Positions 2,884 to 10,656 of a stretch of DNA of 45,203 nucleotides are shown here, in pieces. Below the pieces are notes generated by a model, which saw only the letters and a list, made by a program, of their open reading frames with translations, was not told where the DNA came from and ran no database searches. The position numbers and the translations under genes were made by a program. The stretch's first letter is position 1, and every line of letters begins with the position of its first letter. Source of the DNA: a virus; UHGV virus genome UHGV-0169311; one strand, given 5' to 3'.

Positions 2884-5793
2884 TTATGCCTGAGTACGCA
2901 GCGCTTCAAGGCGGCGCAGGTCGAAGTCGTTCAGTTCGTCGGTGTAGTCAGCAGTGATTGGCGCTGGCCATTCACCTGTGTCGAATCCGGTTGCGATATT
3001 GCGCATCGCTTTGCGGTACTCGAACATACCCAGCTCCAGTAGTTCAGCGGATGCCTCGATGATGGCGATCCAGTGGTAGTTCTCGTCTTTGTTGACGAAA
3101 ATCCAGAAGAACTGATCCAGCGCTGCGGTTTCGCAGTACATAGCCGCGCTCAGGTGATAATCACGTTCAATAATTTCCCGGTGTAGCCTGGCGCGCAGGC
3201 TTTCCTGCTTAACATTCCACATGCTGATGGTTTTCAGGTCTGCACCTATACGCACGCCATCCAGGTCGATCTCAAGGTCAGGGCGCACACGAACTTCCAA
3301 GCCCGTCTCCTCGTCAAAACCAAAGTAGCTCACCTCAACGGCTCGGCTAGGGTGGGTCAGCAGCATGCCGGCGGTCGGGTGTGCCAGAAGCGCTTTTTGA
3401 ATATTCAGCGCGGTGCTCAGCTGCTGGCGGGTGACCAGCACTTTTCCTTCCGGGTTATCGCGCCAGGCATCCAGCAGTTCGTCGGCAAATACGGCATCTG
3501 GTTTGACTGCCTTCACGGCCTGGATCATGTCTGCTTTGGTACCGGACACTTTCAGTGGTGCCGGTTTCTGTGCTTCCTGAGCCACAAGGTCAGGGTTGAT
3601 GATTGCCAACTGCTCCAGCAGCGCGTCACGGCTGCCGCTGGTTTTAACCGGCGGCGGCAGGGTGGCGTTGTACTCTTTAATGCATGCCTTCATTGCCGTC
3701 GCCGTCTGCTTCTGGTCACCATCAATACGCTGGAAGTCAGCTGGCAGCGCCATATAGTTCTGTGCCGTTTCTTCCAGGTTAGCGCCAAGCGGAACCTGCG
3801 GCGGCAGGGTGGCGTTGTACTCTTCCAGTAACACCTTGATGTCGTCGGCAGACAGCAGCGCCGGCAGGCTGGCATTGTGCTCATCGATAAAGGCGCGCAG
3901 GGTCGCGGCCGTTGTGAATGCGCCTTCAGGGATCACCGGTTCAACGCTGAATTCTGCGTCCAGTAGTTCAGGCTGCAACGCCAGCGCATGCACCAAGTTG
4001 CCCATGTCCAGCACCGCTGAGCGCTCTTTGACGATGGTTTTCTCTACGTGGCGCGCATTGAAGTACATCAGCGAAACGCGCGCATCTTTCACCTGGGTTG
4101 AGCTGATGCCGTTGGCGGCGTGGCAAACCTCGTTTGGCAGCCCTTCATAGCGGCCTGGCTCGAAATAAGCGGGATAAACAACAGCTGGTTCGTCAGATTG
4201 CGCTTCTGGCTCGGTTTGTGCTGCAACTGGTTCGGTTTGGCTTACAGAATCGCTATTTTTGGCGACAGAATCCGTATTCTGGTCTACATCGTCCTTCTGG
4301 CTGGTATCTGACTCTTCACCAGACTCCAGACTGCTTTCGCCTGGCTGTACTTCATCACCAGCTTGTTTTTCATCACTGACAGTTTCTTGAACCTGCACAT
4401 TGCTGGTGGTCTCCGTAGCCTTTTTCGTGCCATGAGTTGCTGAGTTCTGCAGCAAAGCCGTAACGTCGAATATTCCGTTGCCGACATTTTTAACCAGTTC
4501 TTGTTCGACTTTCTGCGGTTGTGCTGCCGCTTCCTCTGCGCGGCGGCGTGCTCCTTCTTCACGCACGCGTTGCAGGTTCTCTTCGTGAGTGCAGAAGGAT
4601 TTGCGCGGAGACTCCTTACCTTCAGGTTGGGGAATTTCCTGTGCTGCGGGTTCAGCCTCATGCAACGGCAATAACTCGACCGCGGAATTGAACGCGGCTG
4701 TCATGGTCTGGTTAACAAATTCCAGGTGAGCGACAGGAGTTAAATGAATATTTTCCGGTGCGATACGTACCAGGTTAAAAATAGCCGTGCGGTTAACACC
4801 CAGAACGCCTGGCTGATTGCGCAGGATGTTGCTCCATGATTTCCATGGTTCTTCTTTTTTGGTCACGATTTCTTTAGCGCGACGAAGAATGCTGCCCGGG
4901 ATCTCGAAGTGGTTGAAGTCCATAGGCAGAAGGGCACACGCAATCTCTAAATCGAGAGTGTCCAGTGTGTGGTGTGCGTCAGGTCCACGGTCAGTGACGT
5001 AACCGCCGTCGGCATTAGTGCCGGAATCAGTACGCTGCACACTACTGATGTGATTACCGGCAGCCCATTCACGCGCCAGGATGCCACGGTCAATGTAATC
5101 AGTCGCCGCCCACATTCTGGTGAAACGGAGTACCAGCGCGAGTTCGTGACGCTTGTCCTGGCTGAACACTTTGCGAATGGCATCGGTGTAGCGCCACAGG
5201 TCTTTGGTGTCGTAACCCTTCACTTCCGGGCAGTTCTCAGCAGCTAACAGCAAGTTCTGGACGTAACTGTTATCAGTGTCCATCTCCAGCGCGCCGATAG
5301 CTTCGTACTCTTCGTGGGTTACGTGGTGGCGCAGTTCGTCGGCGGTGAACTGGGAAAGCAGTTGCTTACGAAACGGCATCTGCACTACCGGGTAGAGGGT
5401 TGAGTCGTCGTCGTGTTCGTCCAGCGTGATGCCAGCGGTTTCTGGCAGCGTTGACTCAGTAGTTATGTGACTATCAACGGTCTGAGCCGTTTTCTCGTCA
5501 GAGTTTTCAGCTGTGACTTTTGGCAGCCAGGTGCGGTCATCGTTCTGCAGTTCGTAGCGTTCGCACCAGGTGTAATCCACTGCGCCTTCTTCCGGCAGGT
5601 CGTCATATACCGGGAAATCGGTGCGGATTGGTTTGGCATAATCTTTACCGCGGCCAGTTTCTTCAATTCCGGCTTCTTCCAGTGCCACATCGAGTTGGAG
5701 ATTGGCGCGCGCTACACTTTTCGCAGTGAACCAAATCACTGCATCTTTCTTGCCAGACTTCTGACTGGCTTTTATCAGATGGAAAAATTCCAT
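2884..5793 (-). CDS. recE: RecE-like exonuclease (exonuclease VIII family) with long N-terminal region
   Basis: ORF track 2884..5898 (GTG). Preferred start is the ATG at 5793 (MEFFHLIK...) preceded by AAGAGGA. C-terminus has a PD-(D/E)xK-like pattern (RPDLEIDLDGVRIGADLKT). Synteny exonuclease then annealase. Confidence 0.55.
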   Translation of the reverse strand: MEFFHLIKASQKSGKKDAVIWFTAKSVARANLQLDVALEEAGIEETGRGKDYAKPIRTDFPVYDDLPEEGAVDYTWCERYELQNDDRTWLPKVTAENSDEKTAQTVDSHITTESTLPETAGITLDEHDDDSTLYPVVQMPFRKQLLSQFTADELRHHVTHEEYEAIGALEMDTDNSYVQNLLLAAENCPEVKGYDTKDLWRYTDAIRKVFSQDKRHELALVLRFTRMWAATDYIDRGILAREWAAGNHISSVQRTDSGTNADGGYVTDRGPDAHHTLDTLDLEIACALLPMDFNHFEIPGSILRRAKEIVTKKEEPWKSWSNILRNQPGVLGVNRTAIFNLVRIAPENIHLTPVAHLEFVNQTMTAAFNSAVELLPLHEAEPAAQEIPQPEGKESPRKSFCTHEENLQRVREEGARRRAEEAAAQPQKVEQELVKNVGNGIFDVTALLQNSATHGTKKATETTSNVQVQETVSDEKQAGDEVQPGESSLESGEESDTSQKDDVDQNTDSVAKNSDSVSQTEPVAAQTEPEAQSDEPAVVYPAYFEPGRYEGLPNEVCHAANGISSTQVKDARVSLMYFNARHVEKTIVKERSAVLDMGNLVHALALQPELLDAEFSVEPVIPEGAFTTAATLRAFIDEHNASLPALLSADDIKVLLEEYNATLPPQVPLGANLEETAQNYMALPADFQRIDGDQKQTATAMKACIKEYNATLPPPVKTSGSRDALLEQLAIINPDLVAQEAQKPAPLKVSGTKADMIQAVKAVKPDAVFADELLDAWRDNPEGKVLVTRQQLSTALNIQKALLAHPTAGMLLTHPSRAVEVSYFGFDEETGLEVRVRPDLEIDLDGVRIGADLKTISMWNVKQESLRARLHREIIERDYHLSAAMYCETAALDQFFWIFVNKDENYHWIAIIEASAELLELGMFEYRKAMRNIATGFDTGEWPAPITADYTDELNDFDLRRLEALRTQA
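3651..3824. repeat. 27-bp perfect direct repeat, two copies (3651..3677 and 3798..3824) inside the recE-like ORF
   Basis: gcggcggcagggtggcgttgtactctt occurs twice 147 bp apart (in frame), giving a repeated EYNATLPP block in the protein. Confidence 0.85.
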
Positions 5794-5931
5794 GTGAGAT
5801 CCTCTTTTTTGAGTGTTAGAATCCCCGGGCCAGAGATAGCGCCCATTGGATGTTTTTTGGTTTGGTATAAATTCCGGTGTAACTTTGGTCGGTGGCACCG
5901 GACGTGAATCCCGCCTTGCGCGGGGTTTTCG

Positions 5932-6093
5932 TTATGCTTCGTGGGCCATCTGGTCGAACGAAGCGCAACGTACTGAACAGTAATCACGTTGCTCGCGTTT
6001 CAACTGCGTGCCGTGGATAAAGAGCAGTTCGTTTTTAACTTCCTTCCCTTGCTTGATCGGCTTGCGGCAGTACGCGCATTTTTTCTCCTGCAT
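5932..6093 (-). CDS. Small Cys-rich protein (53 aa), not in the ORF track
   Basis: ATG preceded by GGAG at 8-nt spacing. Translation MQEKKCAYCRKPIKQGKEVKNELLFIHGTQLKREQRDYCSVRCASFDQMAHEA has CxxC ... CxxxC, zinc-ribbon-like. Sits between two leftward genes. Confidence 0.35.
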   Translation of the reverse strand: MQEKKCAYCRKPIKQGKEVKNELLFIHGTQLKREQRDYCSVRCASFDQMAHEA

Positions 6094-6104
6094 AACTCAC
6101 TCCG

Positions 6105-6311
6105 TTAATGGCTAAGGCCATGTCCTAAACCGTTTAGATAAACCTCAACCAGCAAATCTTTGGTGTAGGTACGTTCGATGCCACGGTGAAGATACAGGCG
6201 ACCGCGTGCGTTAGCAGATGCGGTCCAGGTTGAGTCTTTGTGTTTTACAAGCATCCCCGGCTGAACTGCGCCGCGGTTTACTGTCTGTGTACCGTAGTGC
6301 TGATGAACCAT
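6105..6311 (-). CDS. Hypothetical protein (69 aa from ATG; ORF extends to 6470 from a GTG)
   Basis: In-frame ATG at 6311 preceded by GGAG (ctggagtacatcATG); the longer GTG-initiated form has no RBS. Confidence 0.4.
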   Translation of the reverse strand: MVHQHYGTQTVNRGAVQPGMLVKHKDSTWTASANARGRLYLHRGIERTYTKDLLVEVYLNGLGHGLSH

Positions 6312-6490
6312 GATGTACTCCAGTTTTTCTGAGTGAACTTCGCTGGTGGTGCCGTGGTGCTGATCTTCACAGTTGAGCGTTTTAACTCTGCAGTTCACCA
6401 CCGCGAAACCCACTCTTATGTGCCTGTCTTTTATCCACTTCAGGCTCGGTGGTATGCTGGTAGTTCTCACACAGCCAGCAAGGAATAACT

Positions 6491-7034: not shown

Positions 7035-7329
7035 CTCAATCCCCTCGTTTGCCCTTGTCGCCAGGCTGGCGGAACGTTTCAAACCTACTGCGCGTTAATC
7101 TCACCACCTCATTCCGGTCTTCGTATGCCCCGGACGGCTTCTTCGTGGGCGTCCTGCCTAGGTGGTTGTGTTGATGGAGTAAGTAAAACACCGCTTTACC
7201 ATTAAGTCAAGTAATGCAGATTAAAAAGGTAAAGCATAGCTGTATGTTGGGCGAAATTTATCCAGATTAGAGATGATTGCATCAACTAAAAGTGTGTATG
7301 ATGAAAAAAAACATCATTGAGGGTGGGAT

Positions 7330-7524
7330 ATGGAAAAGTTCTACGTGGGTTACAACGATGTATGTCAGGCGGTAGGTAGAGCGACGCTGAATCTGATATC
7401 ACATGGAGACGCGCCCACTACTGAGGCGATCATTTCAATGCTGGAGTCGCTGGGGGATATTGAGCAGAACGATTTTTGGCGACAGGTGTTCAGGTTTGCT
7501 GCTGAGGAAGTGCGAAAAGGGTAG
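7330..7524 (+). CDS. Hypothetical protein
   Basis: 64-aa ORF with RBS GAGGGTGGG before the ATG, AT-rich upstream region, followed by a GC hairpin. Confidence 0.45.
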   Translation: MEKFYVGYNDVCQAVGRATLNLISHGDAPTTEAIISMLESLGDIEQNDFWRQVFRFAAEEVRKG

Positions 7525-7529
7525 GCAAA

Positions 7530-7560
7530 AGAAACCCCGGCGCGGTGGCCGGGTTGGAGA
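7530..7560. terminator. Bidirectional hairpin between convergent genes (stem CCCGGC / GCCGGG, 7536..7553)
   Basis: 6-bp GC stem with 6-nt loop; on the minus strand it is followed by GTTTCTTTTG, on the plus strand by TTGGAGATTATTTT. Confidence 0.45.
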
Positions 7561-7986
7561 TTATTTTCTAGATGATGTTGGGGACCAAGGTAACGTTATA
7601 GTATCTAACACTGTGTTTTTGAACATATTTTCAAAAACTGTTTTTGTACATACATATACATAATTTTCAAAAAACCAAGCATTTTCATTATAAAAATCCT
7701 CAGTTACTTCTTCATCGAGGTCACACTCAAATGTTAGTGTCAAGGTAGCCTCTGCCTTGAACAATACATCCTCACCATCATCAAAATCTTTTTTATCGCG
7801 AGGGAAACCAGTTATCGATGGCTTAACTTCAATAAAGAGCCAATTTCCATCTTCATCTTTTTGAGGAACAACGTGATGCTCAGAAAATTTTAAGCTATAT
7901 TTTCCGCCTTCAGAATTATCACTGTCGTCGATAAAAAGGGAAGAACCCTCGAGATCAAATCCCTTAAAGCGAATTTTATCAAGCAT
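7561..7986 (-). CDS. Hypothetical acidic protein, translationally coupled to hicB
   Basis: ATG at 7986 overlaps the hicB TGA (TGATG). 141-aa Asp/Glu-rich product; AT-rich DNA. Confidence 0.5.
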   Translation of the reverse strand: MLDKIRFKGFDLEGSSLFIDDSDNSEGGKYSLKFSEHHVVPQKDEDGNWLFIEVKPSITGFPRDKKDFDDGEDVLFKAEATLTLTFECDLDEEVTEDFYNENAWFFENYVYVCTKTVFENMFKNTVLDTITLPWSPTSSRK

Positions 7987-8459
7987 CAATGTGGCACTCC
8001 GTTGTCTACTGAAACTTCCCAATAGGTCTCTTCTGTACGTCTACGGGATGAGAAGAAAGTAACTTCTCTAACATCCCTCGGTTTTTCAAAGTGGTAGTGA
8101 ACCTCTTTTTTCCCATTAACTGACTCACTGACAGCCTGTTTTACATAATCGTTTAAAGTCATATTCTTAGCTTTAGCAGCTAAATATGCTTTTTTATGCA
8201 GGGATTCACCTATCCGGATGTTAAACGAACCACTCATTGTCTTATCTGGAGATTTTCCTATCTCTTCACAAGTGGAGAGGTAATCGTCCACGGCCTCCTC
8301 AAAGGCTGCACGGAGTTCTGCAACCGTTGCACCCTCATAAGTGACGAGATCATTTATACATTCGAGTTTTCCATGCATCACCCCATCTTCAAATGAAATG
8401 CTGGAGCTACCATAGTAACCTTTGTATTTCATCAAGTTATTCATGATCATCAATCTCAT
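7986..8459 (-). CDS. hicB: HicB-family antitoxin with C-terminal extension
   Basis: MKYKGYYG ... NDLVTYEGATVAELRAAFEEAVDDYL ... SGSFNIRIGESLHKKAYLAAKAKNMTLNDYVKQAV matches the HicB pattern (RNase H-like fold plus RHH) from memory; about 45 extra residues follow. Start ambiguous (ATGs at 8459, 8450, 8444). Confidence 0.75.
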   Translation of the reverse strand: MRLMIMNNLMKYKGYYGSSSISFEDGVMHGKLECINDLVTYEGATVAELRAAFEEAVDDYLSTCEEIGKSPDKTMSGSFNIRIGESLHKKAYLAAKAKNMTLNDYVKQAVSESVNGKKEVHYHFEKPRDVREVTFFSSRRRTEETYWEVSVDNGVPH

Positions 8460-8691
8460 CTAACAGCTGTTTAACTTCTTCCAAGACGTACCTTTTGAGG
8501 GTGTTTTCAGGATGAGGCTCATGAAAAATGACCAATCTATCAACACGTTGGTTGTAAAATTTACGGCCAGAACCTCGTTTAGCATTCAAAAGCTTGAAGC
8601 CATACTGGTTCATGAGAGTAACGAACTCATCCCAAGTAAAATTTTTGGGTAAGCCGTCTAACTTTGACTTTAGCTTTTCCTTTCTTCCCAC
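8437..8691 (-). CDS. hicA: HicA-family toxin (mRNA interferase)
   Basis: 84-aa ORF with GFKLLNAKRGSGRKFYNQ ... LVIFHEPHP ... LKRYVLEEVKQLL, the HicA/YcfA pattern (from memory); directly upstream of and overlapping hicB. Confidence 0.7.
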   Translation of the reverse strand: MGRKEKLKSKLDGLPKNFTWDEFVTLMNQYGFKLLNAKRGSGRKFYNQRVDRLVIFHEPHPENTLKRYVLEEVKQLLDEIDDHE

Positions 8692-8718
8692 GAAGGATAC
8701 ATCCTCTGTTAAAGGTAG

Positions 8719-8739
8719 TGCAACTGAAATCTAGTTGCA
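8719..8739. promoter_or_regulatory. Inverted repeat TGCAACT-N7-AGTTGCA upstream of hicA
   Basis: Perfect 7-bp arms, 28-48 bp upstream of the hicA start on the minus strand; candidate autoregulatory operator. Confidence 0.3.
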
Positions 8740-8851
8740 AGCTATGCTATCTATAGACAAAATGTTTCATTGTTATATCAGAAGATACCCGATCTGTTTC
8801 ACCTTCAACTACTATAATTTGTTATAAGCTATCAACCGGTGGAACTGCGAA

Positions 8852-8950
8852 TTAGCCGCTGGGTGTTGCGTATCCATCGATGATAAACCATGCCATAAAC
8901 CCCATAGCTACGATGAACACCAAGATCGGAAACACTATACCAATTCTCAT
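8852..8950 (-). CDS. Small hydrophobic peptide (32 aa), not in the ORF track
   Basis: ATG preceded by AGGGA; MRIGIVFPILVFIVAMGFMAWFIIDGYATPSG is a single predicted transmembrane helix; between the repressor paralogs and hicA. Confidence 0.3.
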   Translation of the reverse strand: MRIGIVFPILVFIVAMGFMAWFIIDGYATPSG

Positions 8951-8995
8951 GATTTTATCCCTGTCTACCCATGCTTCCTGGGCACCAGCGGCTCG

Positions 8996-9388
8996 TTACT
9001 CGGCATCGCCCTTAATCCGCCGCCCCATATATTTGGCGTACAGATCGTCGAGTTCCTTCAGGCGCAGTGATACCGCCTTAAGAACTCCACCCTGATCCTC
9101 TTCGGGGAGTTGACGGAAAAGGCGTAAAAGCTCTTGCTCATTACTTTTTAATCCATCATTGGGCCCTATATCCTGCCCCAAAACCCAGGCTAAATTCACA
9201 CCAAGCGCATCAGCTAGCTTAAGTGCGGAGTTTTTCCCAATAGTTCCCCTTACAAACCAGTTGTTAACCGACTGGGATGTTACGCCACAAATTCTGGCCA
9301 GATCTGCTTTTGAGAGATGTTTACTATTCGTGATCTCATTGAGTCGTCTGACCTGTGGGTTATCTGATTCGTGTGTATTTTTTCTCAT
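8996..9388 (-). CDS. HTH repressor-like protein (paralog 2)
   Basis: 130 aa from the ATG at 9388 (track start is GTG 9403). HTH segment SKADLARICGVTSQSVNNWF and C-terminal helix LPEEDQ ... LRLKELDDLYAKYM. Paralogous to 9408..9791. Confidence 0.55.
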   Translation of the reverse strand: MRKNTHESDNPQVRRLNEITNSKHLSKADLARICGVTSQSVNNWFVRGTIGKNSALKLADALGVNLAWVLGQDIGPNDGLKSNEQELLRLFRQLPEEDQGGVLKAVSLRLKELDDLYAKYMGRRIKGDAE

Positions 9389-9407
9389 GTACAAGAGTAT
9401 CACTTAG

Positions 9408-9791
9408 CTAATCAGCATCGCCCCTGATTCTGCGATTCATGTACTTGGCATATAGTTCATCGAGTTCCTTCAGACGCAGGGAGAAGATCCTTATCATATT
9501 CTGCTGTTCTTCTTCCGGTAACTGTCTGTAGAGCTCCAGAATACGTTGTTCATCAGGCTTAAGACCATCCTTCTCTCCAACATCCTCACCAAGTAGCCAG
9601 GGGACGGACACCCCTGCAGCGTCAGCAACCGCTAATGCAGAACTTTTGCTGATTCTTCCTGTTTTGAACCAACTGGAAACAGCTTGCTTACTGACGCCAG
9701 CAACCCTGGCCATCTCTGTTTTAGAGAAACCTTTCCTGTTCAGTTCTGTAAGCCTGGAAATCAGCTCATTTGTCATTGTTTTTTCGCTCAT
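9408..9791 (-). CDS. HTH repressor-like protein, probable prophage repressor (paralog 1)
   Basis: 127 aa; HTH segment SKTEMARVAGVSKQAVSSWF; short, no peptidase domain; divergent from the Cro-like gene across an operator-bearing intergenic region. Confidence 0.6.
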   Translation of the reverse strand: MSEKTMTNELISRLTELNRKGFSKTEMARVAGVSKQAVSSWFKTGRISKSSALAVADAAGVSVPWLLGEDVGEKDGLKPDEQRILELYRQLPEEEQQNMIRIFSLRLKELDELYAKYMNRRIRGDAD

Positions 9792-9889: not shown

Positions 9890-10114
9890 ATGACTGGTAT
9901 TGAGAAAGCTATTCAAAAGTTCGGCACAGGTGCGGCACTCGGAAGAGCGCTTGGATTTTCAAAAATGACAATTTCCAACTGGAAAAAAACTGGCATTCCG
10001 CCCGATCACATTCTCTCTGTTTTTGAGCTTACGGGGGTCACACCGCATGAGTTGCGGCCTGACTTATATCCAAATCCAACCGATGCCTTACCAGTGCAAG
10101 AAACGAGGACGTAA
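9890..10114 (+). CDS. Cro-like HTH regulator (YdaS-like)
   Basis: 74 aa with RBS GGAGG; HTH LGRALGFSKMTISNWKK; ELRPDLYP motif as in YdaS-type Cro proteins (from memory). Confidence 0.6.
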   Translation: MTGIEKAIQKFGTGAALGRALGFSKMTISNWKKTGIPPDHILSVFELTGVTPHELRPDLYPNPTDALPVQETRT

Positions 10115-10116
10115 AC

Positions 10117-10656
10117 GTGCAATCACTATCACTTCATCAAAATAGCGGATATCAACCGGCTGCGATGATAAATCGCAATCAACCTGTCTCGGTAGATAAA
10201 CATGACCAGATCCGCGATGCCGTTCGTGCGTGGGCGGGTGTAGATGGTCAGGATGTCGTTTCTGCTCTGATCATCGAAGAGTACCAGGCTCAAGGGGGAG
10301 ACGAGATCACTTTCCCTGATGACCTCAGCCGACAGCGTCAGAAGCTTTTCCGCTTTCTGGATAACCATTTCAACAGCGAACGGTACCGCGAAAACGTTCG
10401 CCAGCTGACTCCGGCAATCCTCGCTGTCCTGCCGATTGAATACCGCAATCGTCTGCTACCAGAAGACAACGTAATGGCTCGTCTGGCAAGGCTGGAGAAG
10501 GAAACCAGCGAAGCGAAGATTGCTGTCGCAATGGATGCGCCACGTCATCAGAAGCTGAAAGAGTTGAGCGAGGGGATCGTGGAGATGTATCGCGTTGACC
10601 CTGGGTTAACCGGTCCGTTGATGGAAATGGTGCAGATTATGCTGGGGGCTATATGA
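10117..10656 (+). CDS. YdaT-like protein (occupies the CII position)
   Basis: 179 aa; TPAILAVLPIEYRNRLL resembles the YdaT motif IPAILAILPRELRHRL (from memory); immediately follows the Cro-like gene. Confidence 0.45.
   Translation: MQSLSLHQNSGYQPAAMINRNQPVSVDKHDQIRDAVRAWAGVDGQDVVSALIIEEYQAQGGDEITFPDDLSRQRQKLFRFLDNHFNSERYRENVRQLTPAILAVLPIEYRNRLLPEDNVMARLARLEKETSEAKIAVAMDAPRHQKLKELSEGIVEMYRVDPGLTGPLMEMVQIMLGAI

Follow-up and report, generated by a model that had tools for sequence, protein, structure and literature searches.

A Rac-like lambdoid prophage with a probable HicAB-type toxin-antitoxin-chaperone cassette in its immunity region

What is a third gene doing beside a hicA-hicB toxin-antitoxin pair? 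The question is raised by the viral genome UHGV-0169311 – a stretch of 45,203 nucleotides, hereafter the window – in which an earlier note, written from the letters alone, had described an operon comprising a HicA-like toxin, a HicB-like antitoxin with an unusual tail, and an acidic open reading frame (ORF) of 141 codons, here called hicC. All three genes are intact, lie on the minus strand and are closely packed, and every element listed in the note was found at the coordinates that it gave. We conclude that the unit is very probably a HicAB-type toxin-antitoxin-chaperone (TAC) system, because the tail of HicB resembles a chaperone-addiction (ChAD) element and because hicC tracks the tailed form of HicB. 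Indeed, the features of a TAC are found together: a toxin-antitoxin family that, like HigBA and MqsRA, is known to form TACs, a third gene of the operon with a predicted SecB fold, a variable C-terminal extension of the antitoxin, and an overlap of a few nucleotides between antitoxin and chaperone genes. The best explanation of the locus as a whole, which we consider probable, is that a Rac-like lambdoid prophage carries, within its immunity region, a HicAB-type TAC as a moron. TAC systems are already known, and the cassette is an ordinary, poorly annotated example; what goes beyond existing annotation is a chaperone clade invisible to sequence profiles, an operator conserved in 10 of 10 loci, an invariant histidine at the end of HicB, and a HicA clade that appears to lack the canonical histidine.

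The third gene and its predicted fold

The gene hicC (7561..7986, minus strand) encodes a protein of 141 residues, 30 of which are Asp or Glu (21%), with a net charge of −15 and an isoelectric point (pI) of 4.36. The earlier note had supposed that such an acidic partner could be a DNA mimic or an effector or immunity component. This idea does not survive: the acidity is the same as that of E. coli SecB (net charge −14, pI 4.26, values essentially equal to those of HicC), and the predicted fold is that of SecB. The AlphaFold model (a monomer, based on 10 homologues; pLDDT 77.6, pTM 0.70) comprises four long antiparallel strands followed by a long helix. When this model was searched with Foldseek, all 18 matches at E<=1e-3 were to SecB or Rv1957, with TM-scores of up to 0.70, and the top matches in BFVD, a library of viral structures, include viral proteins annotated as SecB. 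As far as a predicted structure allows, the assignment of HicC to the SecB chaperone fold is strongly supported.

A word-indexed search of 5.8 billion proteins gave 12 close relatives of HicC, and 60 proteins, mostly of 130-155 aa, matched at E<=1e-3 when a profile was run exhaustively against 1.8 billion cluster representatives. The protein itself had no match in Pfam, NCBIfam or PADLOC, and none in the PDB by phmmer; in PHROGs it falls only within the unnamed family phrog_19522, of 'unknown function'. HicC is 'hypothetical' almost everywhere because sequence profiles cannot recognise this chaperone clade. The third gene being unnamed in RefSeq, PHROGs, Pfam, NCBIfam and PADLOC, genome surveys therefore count a plain HicAB and miss what would be a chaperone-gated system. 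In a GenBank record of 2025 for phage mEp234 (PV340539.1) the genes already appear as HicA toxin, HicB antitoxin and 'HicC chaperone'; no paper that describes the system turned up in searches of the literature on HicC, hicABC, the HicA of mEp234 and the PV3405xx accessions, and the survey of HicA by Gerdes mentions neither SecB nor a chaperone (PMC10865869).

Toxin, tailed antitoxin and their linkage to hicC

The identities of the first two genes are borne out by the profile searches that the earlier note had proposed as a check. hicA (8437..8691, minus strand, GTG start) encodes a HicA-family toxin of 84 aa, named HicA toxin in both RefSeq and GenBank, that matches Pfam HicA_toxin (PF07927; E 1.2e-7, 32.1 bits against a gathering cut-off of 27) and PHROG 8887 'toxin' (E 2.7e-34). 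hicB (7986..8444, minus strand), the start of which overlaps the 3' end of hicA, encodes a HicB antitoxin of 152 aa if read from MNNLMKY; an alternative ATG at 8432, preferred by PGAP, gives 148 aa. The protein matches Pfam HicB (PF05534) over residues 55-104 (E 1.4e-18, 66.9 bits against a cut-off of 21), and PHROGs places it among HicB-like antitoxins. Neither HicA nor HicB had a sequence match to the solved HicAB structures. In the AlphaFold model of HicB (41 homologues) residues 3-110 are folded, as four strands and a helix, a linker and the two helices of a ribbon-helix-helix (RHH) domain. The features expected of a HicB are thus present: the Pfam match and the model indicate the N-terminal HicB fold and the RHH domain, and a conserved repeat described below is a probable operator in front of the operon.

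Beyond this core lies the tail. Structure prediction, which the earlier note had proposed for both the tail and the third ORF, returned a disordered chain for the former and the SecB fold for the latter: residues 116-152 of HicB have pLDDT values below 50 throughout. The tail as delimited here (residues 113-152, encoded by 7989..8108, minus strand; KEVHYHFEKPRDVREVTFFSSRRRTEETYWEVSVDNGVPH) is an extra segment beyond the RHH domain, as the note had claimed, although its length is about 40 residues and not the 45 or so that the note gave. In alignments of HicB the core is conserved to about residue 110 and is followed by a KE[VI]HxH motif and then by a stretch that varies in both length and sequence; six of the 40 tail residues in the window protein are aromatic. 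Disorder, aromatic residues, variability and absence from short HicBs together make the tail a putative ChAD element. The note had set it, with the third gene, outside the canonical HicAB module; the idea that the two fall beyond any known system is not supported, and the tail fits the ChAD extension by which TAC systems are defined, and HicAB versions of these were described in 2013 and 2016. The terminal residue of HicB is a histidine that is invariant in 10 loci (codon CAY; 7989..7991 in the window). A glycine codon (GGA or GGT) often stands three to five codons before it (junction 7984..8000), and the invariant histidine may reflect a constraint on the protein or a constraint on the Shine-Dalgarno sequence or coupling of hicC.

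The tail of HicB and hicC occur together. Every hicC homologue with readable upstream DNA is preceded by hicA and a tailed hicB (152-180 aa); one further member of the HicC family, at a contig end without upstream DNA, stands outside this count. Conversely, every tailed-hicB locus that is readable to the next gene carries hicC, which answers the question, posed in the earlier note as a possible refutation, of whether the third ORF is missing from homologous islands. Tail and third gene are both missing at two loci with short HicB homologues, of 117 and 132 aa. A HicB of 114 aa and 96% identity (P0082) was considered as a natural deletion of the tail and rejected, its ORF lying at a contig end.

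The linkage extends to the reading frames. Inspection of the window confirms the TGATG at 7984..7988 (minus strand), in which the TGA of hicB (7988..7986) shares its A with the ATG of hicC (7986..7984). An overlap of the form T(G/A)ATG (TGATG or TAATG) is present in the window and in six related loci; in two further hicB-hicC loci, from Enterobacter and E. coli prophages, the genes as called overlap by 4 nt and 16 nt. Translational coupling of hicC to hicB is strongly supported. The three-gene operon with its coupled stop and start, as the note had described it, recurs in every related locus readable to the next gene, with third proteins down to about 20% identity, and HicC members of 20-32% identity from metagenomes and other genomes retain their linkage to hicA and hicB. 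It is strongly supported that hicA, hicB and hicC stay together throughout a family whose members have diverged to about 20% identity.

Divergence is unevenly distributed over the unit. Mean pairwise identity over ten trios is 56% for HicA and 62% for the core of HicB, and falls to 31% for the tail of HicB and 33% for HicC: the two parts proposed to interact diverge fastest, and at a similar rate.

Known systems and competing readings

In TACs the chaperone binds the C-terminal ChAD extension of the antitoxin (PMC3581621, PMC5105189). HicAB versions were described by Sala (2013, PMC3581621), and one from Methylomonas methanica, Mmet-HicAB, has been validated, its ChAD being residues 119-159 of HicB (Bordes 2016, PMC5105189). 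The cassette of the window resembles Mmet-HicAB/SecB^TA in gene order (hicA, hicB with an RHH domain, chaperone), in the approximately 40-residue extension of HicB (119-159 there, 113-152 here) and in the overlap of the chaperone gene with the antitoxin gene by a few nucleotides. It differs in that TACs of the Mmet-HicAB type were found through the Pfam SecB domain, whereas the HicC clade matches no SecB profile, in that HicC always accompanied hicAB among the loci sampled, and in its host, an enterobacterial lambdoid prophage.

A second point of comparison is HigBAC of E. coli NT1F31, a TAC of a lambdoid prophage that occupies the rex slot 3' of cI and defends against phages (Mets et al. 2024, bioRxiv 10.1101/2024.02.24.581848). 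Its trigger is lambda gpV, which competes with the ChAD for HigC through an aromatic pattern (bioRxiv 10.1101/2024.02.24.581848). Both systems lie in the variable locus downstream of the repressor, at the position of lambda rexAB; by analogy, recognition of the ChAD through aromatic residues and use of the chaperone as phage sensor may be shared as well. The toxin-antitoxin pair of HigBAC, however, is HigBA, with a ribosome-dependent RNase of the RelE type, in place of HicAB, and gpV is the trigger of that system. CmdTAC likewise has a SecB-like chaperone: the capsid protein displaces CmdC, after which ClpP degrades CmdA (Vassallo et al. 2024, PMC11618068), and a comparable route from loss of the chaperone to antitoxin degradation, toxin release and phage defence could apply here. 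The CmdTAC toxin, in contrast, is an mRNA ADP-ribosyltransferase, and CmdA ends in a ClpXP LAA tag where the HicB of the window ends in ...GVPH. HigBA1-SecB^TA of M. tuberculosis (Rv1955-Rv1957; PDB 5MTW) has only 12% sequence identity, a different toxin-antitoxin family and a different host, and has been framed as stress-responsive. With the canonical two-gene HicAB systems (E. coli K-12, Y. pestis, B. pseudomallei) the cassette shares the HicA and HicB Pfam families, an operator 5' of hicA and an expectation of autoregulation; it departs from them in its extra chaperone gene, its antitoxin tail, an 84-aa HicA with an N-terminal extension, and GS[GR]RKF in place of GSH.

The mechanism that we envisage draws on the characterised TACs, namely Mtb HigBA1-SecB^TA, Mmet-HicAB, HigBAC and CmdTAC. 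The tail of HicB would act as the ChAD, leaving HicB prone to aggregation or proteolysis unless held by HicC; HicC-bound HicB would neutralise HicA and repress the operon through its operator. Were HicC titrated away, HicB would be lost, HicA freed and the cell arrested. If the system defends against phages, HicC would be titrated by a structural protein that the infecting phage has just made and that shows a similar aromatic pattern, and in a lysogen the cassette would then work in abortive infection or exclusion from the position of lambda rexAB. By analogy with the enterobacterial systems, we lean somewhat towards such a defensive role with the chaperone as sensor. A bolder proposal is tentative, and on balance doubtful: that HicC represents a sequence-orphan lineage of the SecB fold, seen only with one HicAB clade and missed by current profile libraries and defence-finding tools; that it is the sensor of a prophage exclusion whose trigger is a structural phage protein, though neither lambda gpV nor T4 Gp23; and that its effector, HicA, dispenses with the canonical catalytic histidine.

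Several observations weigh against interpreting the unit as a TAC. None of the 53 HicC family members matches Pfam SecB (PF02556) at E<=0.1, or indeed any Pfam family; a family profile built from the 53 sequences retrieves nothing from the PDB at E<=10; and hhalign of HicC against E. coli SecB, with a single sequence and with a 12-sequence alignment, gives probabilities of 0.4-0.7%, although the SecB profile used was shallow because the search for SecB homologues returned only sequences at least 83% identical. With no sequence link to SecB, the homology of HicC and SecB therefore rests on a structure predicted from a 10-sequence alignment. Such a gap is not unusual for TAC chaperones: a phmmer search with E. 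coli SecB does not match Rv1957, and published identities among these chaperones are 14-19% (PMC3581621, PMC5105189). PADLOC has no model for HicA, HicB or HicC, and the comparison with short HicBs covers two loci only. HicB ends in ...DNGVPH, without the LAA-type ClpXP tag of other TAC antitoxins, a tag that is a reported tendency and not a strict criterion.

A further difficulty lies in the toxin. The catalytic histidine of the GSH motif is His23 in EcHicA, His24 in BpsHicA and His28 in YpHicA3 (PMC11594946). The HicC-linked HicA clade has GS[GR]RKF (GSGRKF in the window) at the place of this motif, a provisional reading given that the reference is only 20% identical and the alignment insecure. 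The invariant histidines of the clade lie within an H-E/C-P-H-P motif (HEPHP), the relevant stretches being residues 40-45 and 57-61; a two-gene relative (locus L022) has the same GS[GR]RKF and histidine pattern. Since the clade is without the canonical GSH histidine, RNase activity of this HicA is assumed; if the substitution is real, it implies a different arrangement of the active site or a different activity.

One alternative accepts the TAC and questions what it is for. The chaperone would couple the stability of the antitoxin to host proteostasis rather than to a phage protein, and the cassette would serve prophage stabilisation ('addiction') or a stress response. The framing of the first characterised TAC, that of M. 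tuberculosis, as stress-responsive (PMC3581621, PMC5105189) agrees with this, as does the behaviour of the cassette as a mobile moron that moves between immunity types. Yet HigBAC and CmdTAC, the enterobacterial TACs in which activation has been worked out, are defence systems with a chaperone sensor, and MqsRAC protects against phage T2. The repeated insertion of the cassette in the repressor-adjacent exclusion slot, and the fast divergence of tail and chaperone – as expected of arms-race interfaces – point the same way, and we hold an addiction or stress function to be unlikely.

Three other readings were considered and rejected on the evidence of fold, charge and linkage. Strict linkage and translational coupling would also be accounted for if the third protein is a second neutraliser or an adaptor that binds HicA or HicAB directly, making a three-component toxin-antitoxin system in which the HicB tail is not chaperoned; but the predicted fold is specifically that of SecB and Rv1957, and the third gene tracks the tail of HicB and not HicA, which leaves this reading very improbable. 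Still less probable is that HicC mimics DNA by its acidity, counters restriction, or is an effector or immunity protein of an unrelated kind. The Asp and Glu content and charge of HicC speak for this, but E. coli SecB is equally charged, the fold matches SecB-type chaperones exclusively, and hicC was never found away from hicAB among the loci examined. Solitary phage SecBs do exist, as in PhiCD119, and some TAC chaperones can replace SecB (PMC3581621, PMC5105189), so that hicC might be a general export chaperone lying next to hicAB by chance; against this stand the stop/start overlap and the linkage with tailed hicB, both conserved across the family, and the lack of sequence similarity between HicC and housekeeping SecB, and we give this reading no more credence than the DNA mimic.

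Interpretation as a TAC, which we retain, predicts that the cassette excludes some phages and that its trigger can be traced through partners of HicC or through escape mutants. Three carriers of the cassette, phages mEp234, HK106 and mEp506, grow on E. coli K-12 and provide a tractable model. The conceptual change is small: the picture drawn from HigBAC and CmdTAC now takes in a HicAB system that occupies the same slot of a prophage, and the invariant operator and the HicA clade without the canonical histidine offer small added routes into the regulation and catalysis of HicAB.

Expression signals and genomic setting

Upstream of hicA lies an inverted repeat, TGCAACT-N7-AGTTGCA (8719..8739; arms 8719..8725 and 8733..8739), that the earlier note had listed, and a regulatory role for it is supported. 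A perfect 7-nt repeat is not rare by itself, the estimated chance expectation for one in 130 nt being about 0.1. However, a core GCAACT(A)-N5-7-(T)AGTTGC stands at −46 to −49 from the start of hicA in 10 of 10 diverged loci, the flanks of which are otherwise unalignable: because the same repeat is kept at the same position in all ten, we regard it as real. Its role as an operator, most plausibly for the RHH domain of HicB, is probable.

The repeat overlaps the −35 box and spacer of a putative weak sigma-70 promoter read by eye (8712..8740, minus strand: −35 TTGCAA at 8740..8735, a 17-nt spacer, −10 TACCTT at 8717..8712). A consensus scan found no strong sigma-70 promoter, and the TTGCAA-17-TACCTT pair did not pass; related loci have the same layout with better −10 boxes (TATTTT, TAATTT). 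A Shine-Dalgarno sequence, GAGGA, was read at 8706..8702 (minus strand). At the other end, the unit is closed by an intrinsic terminator (7526..7553, minus strand) with a stem at 7536..7553 of six G-C pairs and a loop of six, followed by the minus-strand T-tract GTTTCTTTTG. This hairpin, which the earlier note had reported, is the only terminator-like site in 7300..9100. In mEp234 the identical element bears the annotation Timm and corresponds to the terminator at which the pRM, pRE and pLit transcripts of lambda end. Because there is no terminator between the repressor genes and hicA, read-through from the repressor transcript is possible, and the cassette may be expressed in this way as well as from its own promoter. 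In lambda, rexAB is read from the cI transcript by read-through.

The cassette as a whole (7523..9035) is of low GC content and mobile. Its extent was taken from positions 124-1636 of the query, the interval 7400-9100, over which it is 99.7% identical in the lambdoid phages mEp234, HK106 and mEp506; the HicC protein is 100% identical in all three. The AT-rich island of the earlier note is evident in a GC content of 0.35-0.41 across 7550-8900, as against 0.47-0.55 in both flanks. Of 5,426 complete E. coli genomes, only six contain the cassette in this version over at least 80% of the query.

The window is a Rac-like lambdoid prophage integrated beside tsr, in which RecE/RecT, YdaS/YdaT and replication O/P-like genes are present. 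Its two repressor paralogs (8996..9403 and 9408..9791, minus strand; 135 and 127 aa) are tandem helix-turn-helix proteins of the Phage_CI_repr/HTH_3 type, alike in their C-terminal halves and without a peptidase S24 domain, and lie opposite YdaS/YdaT-like genes (9890..10656); the immunity region is Rac-type with a duplicated repressor. The island does follow the repressors, as the earlier note had it, but hicA is not directly beside them, because an ORF at 8852..8950 intervenes. This ORF (minus strand) encodes a hydrophobic protein of 32 aa, MRIGIVFPILVFIVAMGFMAWFIIDGYATPSG, which RefSeq assigns to the YoaK family of small membrane proteins; it accompanies the cassette into mEp234, but none of the other hicABC loci retrieved contains its sequence. 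On the far side, a 64-aa ORF on the plus strand (7330..7524), with weak matches to PHROGs of unknown function, converges on the terminator of hicC, and a stretch of about 155 bp around it is common to the window and phage mEp237.

The position of the cassette recalls that of lambda rexAB. In mEp234 it is flanked by cI and the Timm terminator and comes shortly before pL/N; this is the rexAB position of lambda and upholds the suggestion of a rex slot in the earlier note; the same slot has been described for a HigBA TAC (Mets et al. 2024). It adjoins the repressor in the window, in mEp234 and in Klebsiella and Enterobacter prophages. The trios of Klebsiella and metagenomic lambdoid prophages follow directly on a cI/S24 repressor, and in Enterobacter prophages, where the trio again comes after the repressor, the third protein is 26% identical to the HicC of the window. 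In lambda, RexAB is an abortive-infection system of the ion-channel type. The cassette shares with it the genomic slot and, in mEp234, closure of the unit by Timm, and would share expression from the prophage for exclusion. RexAB differs in its ion-channel-type mechanism, and the exclusion role of hicABC is putative. As for homology to RexA or RexB, the cassette had no Pfam match besides HicA and HicB, and no sequence or structural relationship was found; in this respect the two units have only their genomic position in common.

E. coli prophages L024 and L025 carry a diverged trio, hicA-hicB(158 aa)-hicC(144 aa), 3' of a hok-like gene and 5' of RusA and the Q antiterminator. Since this trio sits near the Q antiterminator, hicABC modules also occur outside the repressor-adjacent slot.

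At its right edge (8996..9035; about 4990..5030 in the mEp234 locus, L001) the cassette shared with mEp234 includes some 37 nt from the 3' end of the window-type repressor gene (...MGRRIKGDAE*). That 3' end persists in mEp234 as a non-coding remnant downstream of the phage's own, unrelated cI, which suggests that the cassette moved from the immunity type of the window into a lambda-like one.

Immediately beyond hicABC lies a variable region that looks like a hotspot for exclusion genes. In a Klebsiella-type prophage (L007) a gene with a RelA_SpoT domain, possibly a toxSAS-like toxin, lies just 3' of hicABC at 5352..6425, and in sister prophages SieB takes its position.

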